NCBI RefSeq assembly: GCF_006345805.1
Contig: NW_021828302.1
Coordinates: forward strand, 1-9,191
Direction of reading: 5' to 3'
DNA from: Octopus sinensis
Lineage: Eukaryota
Length of the DNA stretch: 9,191 bases
Under the pieces are notes generated by a model, which worked only from the letters and a program-made list of their open reading frames with translations, searched no databases and had not been told where the DNA came from. Each line of letters opens with the position of its first letter. Positions within the stretch are counted from its first letter, which is position 1. This document shows, piece by piece, positions 5,953 to 6,766 of this stretch. Position numbers and translations under genes: made by a program.

Positions 5953-6132
5953 AATTTAAATGTTGAAGTGAATCTAATGGTTTTTGTGTATTTCTTAAAT
6001 GGCTTATAAACATTGCTGTATTTCGGAATGGTCATTTTGCCAGTTTAGCCAAAAAAAAACACATGCACAATATATTTGGTGTTACTTTGCTTCAGAGTTA
6101 TTTATTTTTTACATTAATTTAAATCTTATTTC

Positions 6133-6177
6133 GGCCAGAGTTCTTTCGTCGCACTCCTGTGACCTTATCAGTGGTCC
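6133..6177 (-). ncRNA. Minimal type I hammerhead ribozyme motif, degenerate in this copy
   Basis: The minus strand reads GGACCA CUGAUAA G GUCAC-AGGAGU-GCGAC GAAA G-AA-C UC^UGGCC: stem I GGACCA/UGGCC with one bulge, stem II with 4 of 5 pairs, minimal stem III. The core deviates from CUGANGA at G8 and has one extra nucleotide before stem II. Confidence 0.6.
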
Positions 6178-6318
6178 TTTGCTTTCTTCTTTCTTATTTG
6201 TGTCTCTCCTTACTAACCATTAGCCATTTTGTATTTCTATTGTATGTGTCTTCATTTGCGCATGCGTATATCTCCATGTGCGTCTATGTTTAGTTAATGT
6301 GTATGTATGTGTGGCCGA

Positions 6319-6590
6319 CCCGGCAGGGGATGGTGGTGGTCCCTGCTGTACTCTTTCACCACAACTTTCTCTCACTCTTACTTCCTGTTTCTGTTGTACC
6401 TGTATTTCAAGGGGCCGGCCTTGTCACTCTCTGTGTCACGCTGAATATCCCCGAGAACTACGTTAAGGGTACACGTGTCTGTGGAGTGCTCAGCCACTTA
6501 CACGTTAATTTCACGAGCAGGCTGTTCCGTTGATCGGATCAACCGGAACCCTCGTCGTCGTAACCGACGGAGTGCTTCCATTCCATTTCC
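6319..6590 (+). mobile_element. 5'-truncated SINE with 12-bp target-site duplication
   Basis: ATGTGTGGCCGA occurs at 6307-6318 and 6591-6602. The insert is GC-richer than its flanks and ends in a TTCCA-like short repeat tail. The body resembles an octopus tRNA-SINE family from memory; the tRNA head is absent. Confidence 0.8.
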
Positions 6591-6766
6591 ATGTGTGGCC
6601 GAAATAAGATTAAGATTTATGTAAAAAATAAATAACACTGAAGCAAAGTAACACCAAATATATAGTGCGTGTGTTTTTATTGGCTAAACTGGCAAAATGA
6701 CCATTCCGAAATACAACAATGTTTGTTTCAACACACGATTTCACATAAAAATCTTGCACAACAAAT

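Follow-up and report, generated by a model that had tools for sequence, protein, structure and literature searches.

The two-armed insertion described here has a structure already known among Penelope-like elements (PLEs), and the family that hosts it is new. For example, the Pen2a/Pen2 elements of Adineta vaga (Arkhipova et al. 2013, PMC3846280) share with this octopus family an inverted pLTR, a tail on one arm, head-to-head insertions, microhomology at 5′ junctions and N-rich ORF inserts. The two differ in their target duplications (8-10 bp in A. vaga, mostly 12-15 nt in the octopus family) and in copy number (few versus thousands), and the part of that report drawn on here holds no histogram of end-points against the ribozyme site. 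More recently, the Anolis Poseidon element PAc (Frangieh et al. 2024, PMC11167929) was found to have two internal reverse transcriptase (RT) starts that bound the tail, as in the octopus family. Further likenesses lie in the cutting and extension of both DNA strands, a start codon within the hammerhead and a protein-assisted ribozyme, although PAc belongs to a different clade. As far as the cited portion of that study goes, mutating the PAc hammerhead leaves insertion in vitro normal and the RNA-seq data contain no reads with an end at the cut, whereas genomic arm starts in octopus show a small excess there.

The EN+ Neptune/Nematis PLEs of Craig et al. (2021, PMC8557442) are also among the closest known systems: in the excerpts used here, these clades have a CX2-5CxxC linker between RT and endonuclease and a microsatellite insertion bias, and the role of the hammerhead in PLEs is called unclear. 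Their tail is 30-40 nt, as against ~55 nt in the octopus family, which also differs in a long Asn-rich N-terminal part of the ORF and in an A9C change in most copies. Animal non-LTR retrozymes (bioRxiv 10.64898/2026.07.22.740005) likewise have a type I hammerhead in a repeat derived from a PLE pLTR. In the available part of that preprint, they are non-coding head-to-tail repeats, each with a hammerhead, whereas the element at the present locus is coding and its truncated arms lie head to head. Among the papers listed by our literature searches, none relates the arm starts of a PLE to its hammerhead cut.

The locus lies in a 9,191-nt stretch of Octopus sinensis DNA (contig NW_021828302.1, positions 1 to 9,191), the whole of which is called the window below. 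Positions within the element are numbered from the predicted hammerhead cut: +1 is the first base past it (minus-strand 6137, plus-strand 6596) and -1 the base before. The features are as follows.

6001..6013, plus strand: 13-bp direct repeat, left copy; likely target-site duplication of the whole two-armed unit
6014..6311, minus strand: left arm, the 5′-truncated 3′ end of a Penelope-like element, from ~-173 to the short 3′ end (+125)
6133..6177, minus strand: predicted minimal type I hammerhead motif inside the left arm; predicted cut 6138/6137
6307..6318, plus strand: 12-bp duplication from a later insertion, left copy; spans the old arm-to-arm junction
6312-6314: TGG microhomology at the old arm-to-arm junction
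6319..6590, no strand assigned: dispersed 272-bp repeat, unrelated, inserted in the junction; matches in 37/525 other fetched loci
6591..6602, plus strand: 12-bp duplication, right copy
6596..6773, plus strand: right arm; begins at +1 relative to the predicted cut, reaches the long 3′ end (+179) and includes the ~55-nt tail
6774..6786, plus strand: 13-bp direct repeat, right copy

This locus is a head-to-head, doubly 5′-truncated insertion of an autonomous Penelope-like retrotransposon and otherwise an ordinary insertion. The inverted repeat that a sequence-only reading had proposed is real: in a local alignment, 6137..6008 (minus strand) and 6596..6724 (plus strand) are 93% identical over 130 columns, and both copies begin with TGGCCGAAATAAG, the preceding base being C in the left copy and G in the right, as that reading had said. 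It also placed the end of the right arm at 6724; the aligned part does stop there, but the arm itself continues to about 6773 (+179). Its central claim, that the boundary coincides exactly with the predicted cut, stands insofar as the alignment starts at +1. However, a C-run precedes ACAC in 57/57 family copies read at the 5′ end of the left arm, so the TGG can be assigned to either arm and this 3-nt microhomology blurs the breakpoint to anywhere in +1..+4. The 12-bp duplication holds bases of both arms, and therefore the 272-bp repeat, whose best match among the 525 other fetched loci is 97.7% over 261 nt, arrived after the arms had joined.

Other repeats surround the element. A ~120-bp direct duplication (89%; window 6763-6886 and 7313-7425) includes the right 13-bp repeat and flanks another dispersed repeat at about 6887-7312. 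Close by on the left is a 155-bp imperfect palindrome (79%; window 5798-5952), possibly a MITE remnant, which has a weak, sub-threshold match to a miRNA family. Tandem repeats occur at window 7870-8127 (97-99 bp, ~2.5 copies) and 8448-8612 (66 bp, 2.5 copies). By eye, two similar stretches follow (TAT)n or (CAT)n runs at window ~845-1020 and 2070-2230 and resemble the 3′ ends of another retroelement.

Members of the family are abundant. A search of the 2.72-Gb source genome returned 2,201 candidates, 40 of which were scored, mostly at 92-94% identity; the left arm matches 39 other scored genomic places at that level over most of 303 nt, and the first 19 bases of the right arm have 3,535 exact copies. 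Copies extend upstream by variable lengths into a coding region in which an RT and, C-terminally, a GIY-YIG endonuclease form a single ORF linked to the arm sequence, with YVDD and YVGET motifs visible. Two open frames, 1,044 and 1,120 aa long, terminate upstream of the pLTR. Pfam matches to RVT_1 (E=0.002) and GIY-YIG (E=3e-4) both fall under the curated cut-offs; the ORF protein has 397 homologues, the best being an Octopus vulgaris protein labelled RT-domain (98% identical). In the RT region, young copies match one another at 97-99%, and pLTR-ORF-pLTR tandems with a unit of ~4.5 kb (4,516 nt in L287) occur in 3/8 long regions. The GIY-YIG region is preceded by a CX4CxxC linker and simple repeats flank 87/151 two-armed loci, two sequence traits that point to the Neptune/Nematis type of EN+ PLE.

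Head-to-head arms are the normal form of the family: an inverted partner is present in 181/232 sampled junction rows, in line with the sequence-only description of a PLE with an inverted partial pLTR. The 3′ ends fall at two fixed sites, about +125 and about +180, and 147/151 measurable two-armed loci combine one arm of each kind; the remaining 4 have an odd end, and none of the 151 has two arms with the same 3′ end. This strict pairing suggests fixed roles for two RT subunits, and it agrees with what the cited portion of PMC11167929 demonstrates for PAc, namely two internal RT starts and priming on both strands. Besides the simple-repeat flanks, a non-simple flanking repeat of at least 8 nt occurs at 47/151 two-armed loci (12-15 nt long in 34 of these) and one of <8 nt at 17; target duplications across the family are 8-27 nt long (mode 12). 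The anatomy also fits the inverted pLTR, one-sided tail and target duplication described in the excerpted PMC3846280. Given the coding upstream region, the tandem units and the two 3′ ends, what lies at this locus is neither a retrozyme nor a MITE but one truncated copy of an element that is autonomous.

Two further arrangements were noted within the family. One locus, L043 (G000:C9:102970057-102973078), holds at least 9 tandem pieces at a spacing of ~173 nt; every piece spans -96..+60, hammerhead included, and the array looks like a retrozyme-like derivative. At five other places (L031, L033, L038, L051 and L057) the same junction joins +1 via TGG to an inverted +110 arm; this is either recurrent microhomology or an amplified mini-element.

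A minus-strand hammerhead-like motif is present at 6177-6133, with its predicted cut where the earlier reading had put it, between 6138 and 6137; an Rfam scan of the window matched no hammerhead family at E<=5, and a PDB sequence search returned nothing relevant. The predicted ribozyme has a 5-bp stem I with a bulge, a stem II of 6 bp in the family and a 2-bp stem III, and it was compared with the minimal type I form, defined by a CUGANGA / GAAA / UH core, an extra base before stem II and G10.1-C11.1. The window copy has the core CUGAUAA, which is of the A9 class with a private G8A change, and one stem II mismatch. Of the 171 copies that have both core and tail, 163 retain G8; at position 9, 138 have C, 28 have A and 5 have T. 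The full canonical core (CTGATGAG) occurs in 25 of the 171, and the youngest subfamily carries C9. In mutagenesis work, A9 substitutions strongly lower hammerhead cleavage. In natural copies of both the A9 and the C9 kind, the local fold with the lowest predicted energy is the hammerhead. In common family forms, 15.2-16.2 is G-C and the stem III loop is AA; these forms lack the palindromic stem and loop III for dimer folding, and a dimer helix would contain two A-A mismatches. Changes in the core are mostly regarded as disabling and on occasion are tolerated, according to the cited part of PMC3088659.

The same region holds a candidate start codon and intron. In L288 (4501-4730, family -31..+199), an ATG in the hammerhead core opens a 19-codon frame; it corresponds to window 6168-6166 on the minus strand and is mutated in the window copy. 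Of the three subfamily changes in this frame, two are synonymous at the first codon position: CTG/TTG and AGG/CGG, the latter being the A9C change. An intron of 168-174 nt is predicted here, with GT at +26, TACTAAC at +182 and AG acceptors that precede +194 and +200; its removal would put this frame in frame with the main ORF, and it contains both RT start sites. Four presumed-RNA contig sets showed neither its spliced joint, whose far side they cover poorly, nor any pile-up of begins or ends; as contigs do not reveal RNA ends, these sets give no evidence either way. A long-range stem is predicted between -89..-74 and +182..+196 (L288:4443-4458 with 4713-4727; pair probabilities 0.64-0.85), and the whole-region fold is no better than shuffles (z=-0.59). 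As modelled, the stem starts right after the +180 RT start and would hide the putative branch point and first acceptor, and it could possibly act as a switch between spliced mRNA and unspliced template.

The sequence-only reading had proposed that the right arm is the cDNA of a ribozyme-processed RNA 5′ end and that a histogram of copy end-points would then peak sharply at the cut. The patterns used to collect arm starts demanded that the anchor downstream be intact and that the two bases upstream not belong to the family. Sample A took the first 100 of 316 matches: 98 were analysed (minus one unfetched row and one duplicate) and 92 kept, excluding 3 at the anchor edge and 3 internal deletions or duplications. 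Sample B took 100 of 108 matches, of which 96 were analysed and 78 kept after dropping 8 anchor-edge cases, 6 internal deletions and 4 intact copies; the two samples were selected differently and have some loci in common. Starts are scattered across the whole sampled range, -97..+98, and the great majority lie away from the predicted cut. Even so, position +1, which was named beforehand, received 6/88 starts in sample A and 9/78 in sample B. With the samples merged and identical junction contexts collapsed, 13/153 starts within -45..+13 fall at +1 against 2.6 expected (p=3e-6), with a slight bias toward +1 because arms reading TTGGCC were scored there though one subfamily has T at -1.

The neighbouring positions contribute as well. 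Merged starts in -2..+4 number 42/153 within -45..+13 against 15.8 expected; this interval was picked on sample A (26/88) and held in sample B (21/78, p=3e-5). When recurring junction types were collapsed, 10/136 starts remained at +1 and 33/136 in -2..+4. Position +3, with 13 starts, equals +1, and +9, with 11, comes close to it. Enrichment at the predicted cut is thus borne out, but it takes the form of a modest, ~3-fold rise over +1..+3 rather than a sharp peak. By a rough scaling with the selector detection rate (11/93), the excess amounts to ~100 arms, ~3% of ~3,500. A separate search that demanded three non-family bases before +1 gave 36 matches; 15 of the 30 loci inspected are true starts near +1 and the others 1-nt indel variants. 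The histograms exclude this search, which had no control position.

Overlaps at junctions are most often 2-3 nt long (63/130 partnered junctions), and a null model was therefore built that keeps the observed overlap lengths and the selector. Against it, +1..+3, an interval set after the data were seen, holds 13/80 cleanly partnered junction types versus ~4.1 (p~2e-4), and +1 alone holds 7 versus 2.0-2.5. Among the same 80 types, -2..-1 is at expectation (7 versus 5.4), +4..+13 holds 14 versus 9-12, and the stem II region (-17..-10) has no peak (8 versus 12-15). Junctions without a clean partner overlap start at +1..+4 in 10/57 cases (p=0.005).

Other hot spots were compared with this one. In a downstream sample (172 matches, 91 analysed, 77 kept), +78..+89 forms a larger raw peak, with 44/77 starts versus 14.2 expected. 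Its cleanly partnered junctions (16/36 versus 11-12 under the null, p 0.08-0.11) fit T-rich microhomology, and 19 partnerless starts lie outside the null. We therefore reject it as a ribozyme-free hot spot of the same kind: among cleanly partnered junctions it is mostly explained by that microhomology, and it is no counter-example to the excess at the cut. Nor is every TGGC motif a hot spot, as just 1/77 starts lies in +92..+98, around the second TGGC at +95. Starts in an upstream sample (129 matches, 30 analysed, 26 kept) cluster at -87..-77, where the clean junctions (5/12 versus 3 expected) are too few to test. A model of RT stalling at a stem with its 3′ arm past the +125 priming site made a prediction that failed (19:25 versus 16:15, p=0.49). 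Among the hot spots compared, the excess at the predicted cut is the one that survives the null; it is real and small.

A first, tail-based split suggested that the excess depends on A9, with cut-site starts in 14/33 A9-like arms versus 22/106 others (p=0.02). Subfamily-anchored sets, in which listed rows were counted by eye within -45..+13 and which overlap the earlier samples, gave 8/38 starts in -2..+4 and 6/38 at +1 for A9-rich set 1 (83 rows), 8/32 and 2/32 for A9-rich set 2 (44 rows), 9/49 and 0-2/49 for the youngest C9 set (70 rows), and 18/84 and 7/84 for a broad C9 set (100 of 117 rows). A script run on the first 30 loci per set placed 2/13 (A9-rich set 1), 6/25 (A9-rich set 2), 5/22 (youngest C9 set) and 4/25 (broad C9 set) in the same interval. 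The A9 dependence was rejected: direct sets gave p=0.79 and 0.80, and pooled counts in -2..+4 were 16/69 A9-enriched (23%) versus 18/84 C9 (21%; p=0.85), with limited power because the A9 anchors are ~60-80% pure and the sets overlap earlier samples. At +1 the counts were 8/69 versus 7/84 (p=0.59); the purest A9 set against the youngest C9 set, 6/38 versus 0-2/49, gave p=0.07. The cut-site excess is similar in A9 and C9 subfamilies, and the simple prediction that it would follow A9 failed.

We think it fairly probable that the boundary arose from two separately primed cDNAs joined through the TGG microhomology at a mildly favoured spot, with cleavage probably unneeded. The endonuclease would nick both strands ~13 nt apart; one nick would prime a cDNA at +125 and the other at +180, both cDNAs would stop early, and repair would anneal their ends through 2-3 bases in common. 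In that case, the +1..+3 excess may reflect an enzyme that drops off on meeting the stem I arm of the folded ribozyme (UGGCC, +1..+5), or else a joining preference outside the null model. This account is supported by the 147/151 loci with +125/+180 arms, the 2-3-nt overlaps, the scattered starts, the indifference to A9 or C9, the C9 core of most copies, the like predicted fold of A9 and C9 copies and the PAc results. Counted against it are the position of the +1..+3 excess, on the side that cleavage predicts with -2..-1 at expectation, the first tail-based split (p=0.02), the contrast at +1 of the cleanest A9 set with the youngest C9 set (p=0.07), and the A9 class of the left arm in the window. 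Stem II, the stronger hairpin, has no peak, which weakens a simple hairpin-stall account.

A less probable, though serious, alternative is that a minority of template RNAs was cut by the hammerhead, that the RT ran off at the 5′-OH end at +1, and that the right arm is such a product, its end used as is (TG/TGG overlap) or after a 2-nt loss (GCC overlap). Cleavage predicts the position that was named beforehand and found enriched, and the excess is confined to +1..+3, survives both the microhomology null and the collapse of recurring junctions, appears in partnerless junctions as well, and is matched by no peak at stem II or the other TGGC. The A9-purest set also has its share at +1. However, the C9 sets show the same excess, the second A9-enriched set has just 2/32 at +1, and roughly 3% of arms are involved. 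The AA loop of stem III is non-palindromic, unlike that of typical PLE dimer ribozymes as described in the cited part of PMC4209133, and the PAc mutants and RNA ends noted above (PMC11167929, as excerpted) also speak against it. At the junction of this locus, we assigned ~70% of the weight to whatever causes the excess (7 versus 2-2.5 expected). About half of this share went to run-off from cut RNA, the rest to drop-off at the folded motif or to a joining bias outside the null. That ~3% of family arms, the right arm included, are run-off copies of hammerhead-cut RNA is accordingly a tentative and rather unlikely proposition.

Far less probable is the non-autonomous, retrozyme-like family of the sequence-only reading, spread as cut-to-cut units or circles. 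The short unit with its type I hammerhead and the tandem array at L043 would suit it, but the search for RT and GIY-YIG ORFs which that reading had itself suggested found them in one frame of >1,000 aa, copies run upstream into this coding sequence for variable lengths, tandem units are ~4.5 kb, and the arms point apart, hold one motif between them and do not end at the cut; the proposal is largely refuted. The remaining rival, a TIR DNA transposon (MITE) with 130-bp terminal inverted repeats and fixed TSDs, would account for the inverted ends and flanking direct repeat but is refuted to the point of negligible probability by inner junctions that differ in nearly every copy, unequal arms, duplications of varied length and the identity of the arm sequence as a retroelement ORF's 3′ end.

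Tallying where arms start in a high-copy family offers an inexpensive in-vivo readout of a ribozyme's role. In octopus the counts give a statistically solid, small excess at the cut, and they set an upper bound: almost every template was RNA that had not been cut. The +1 excess hints that the hammerhead cuts in living cells. If the arms behind it are run-off copies, the genome would bear evidence of germ-line cutting by the ribozyme of a Penelope element. The persistence of the excess in C9 subfamilies would then mean that the A9→C core still cleaves in vivo, probably aided by the element's protein. The natural A9/C9 pair makes the ribozyme question directly testable at the bench.
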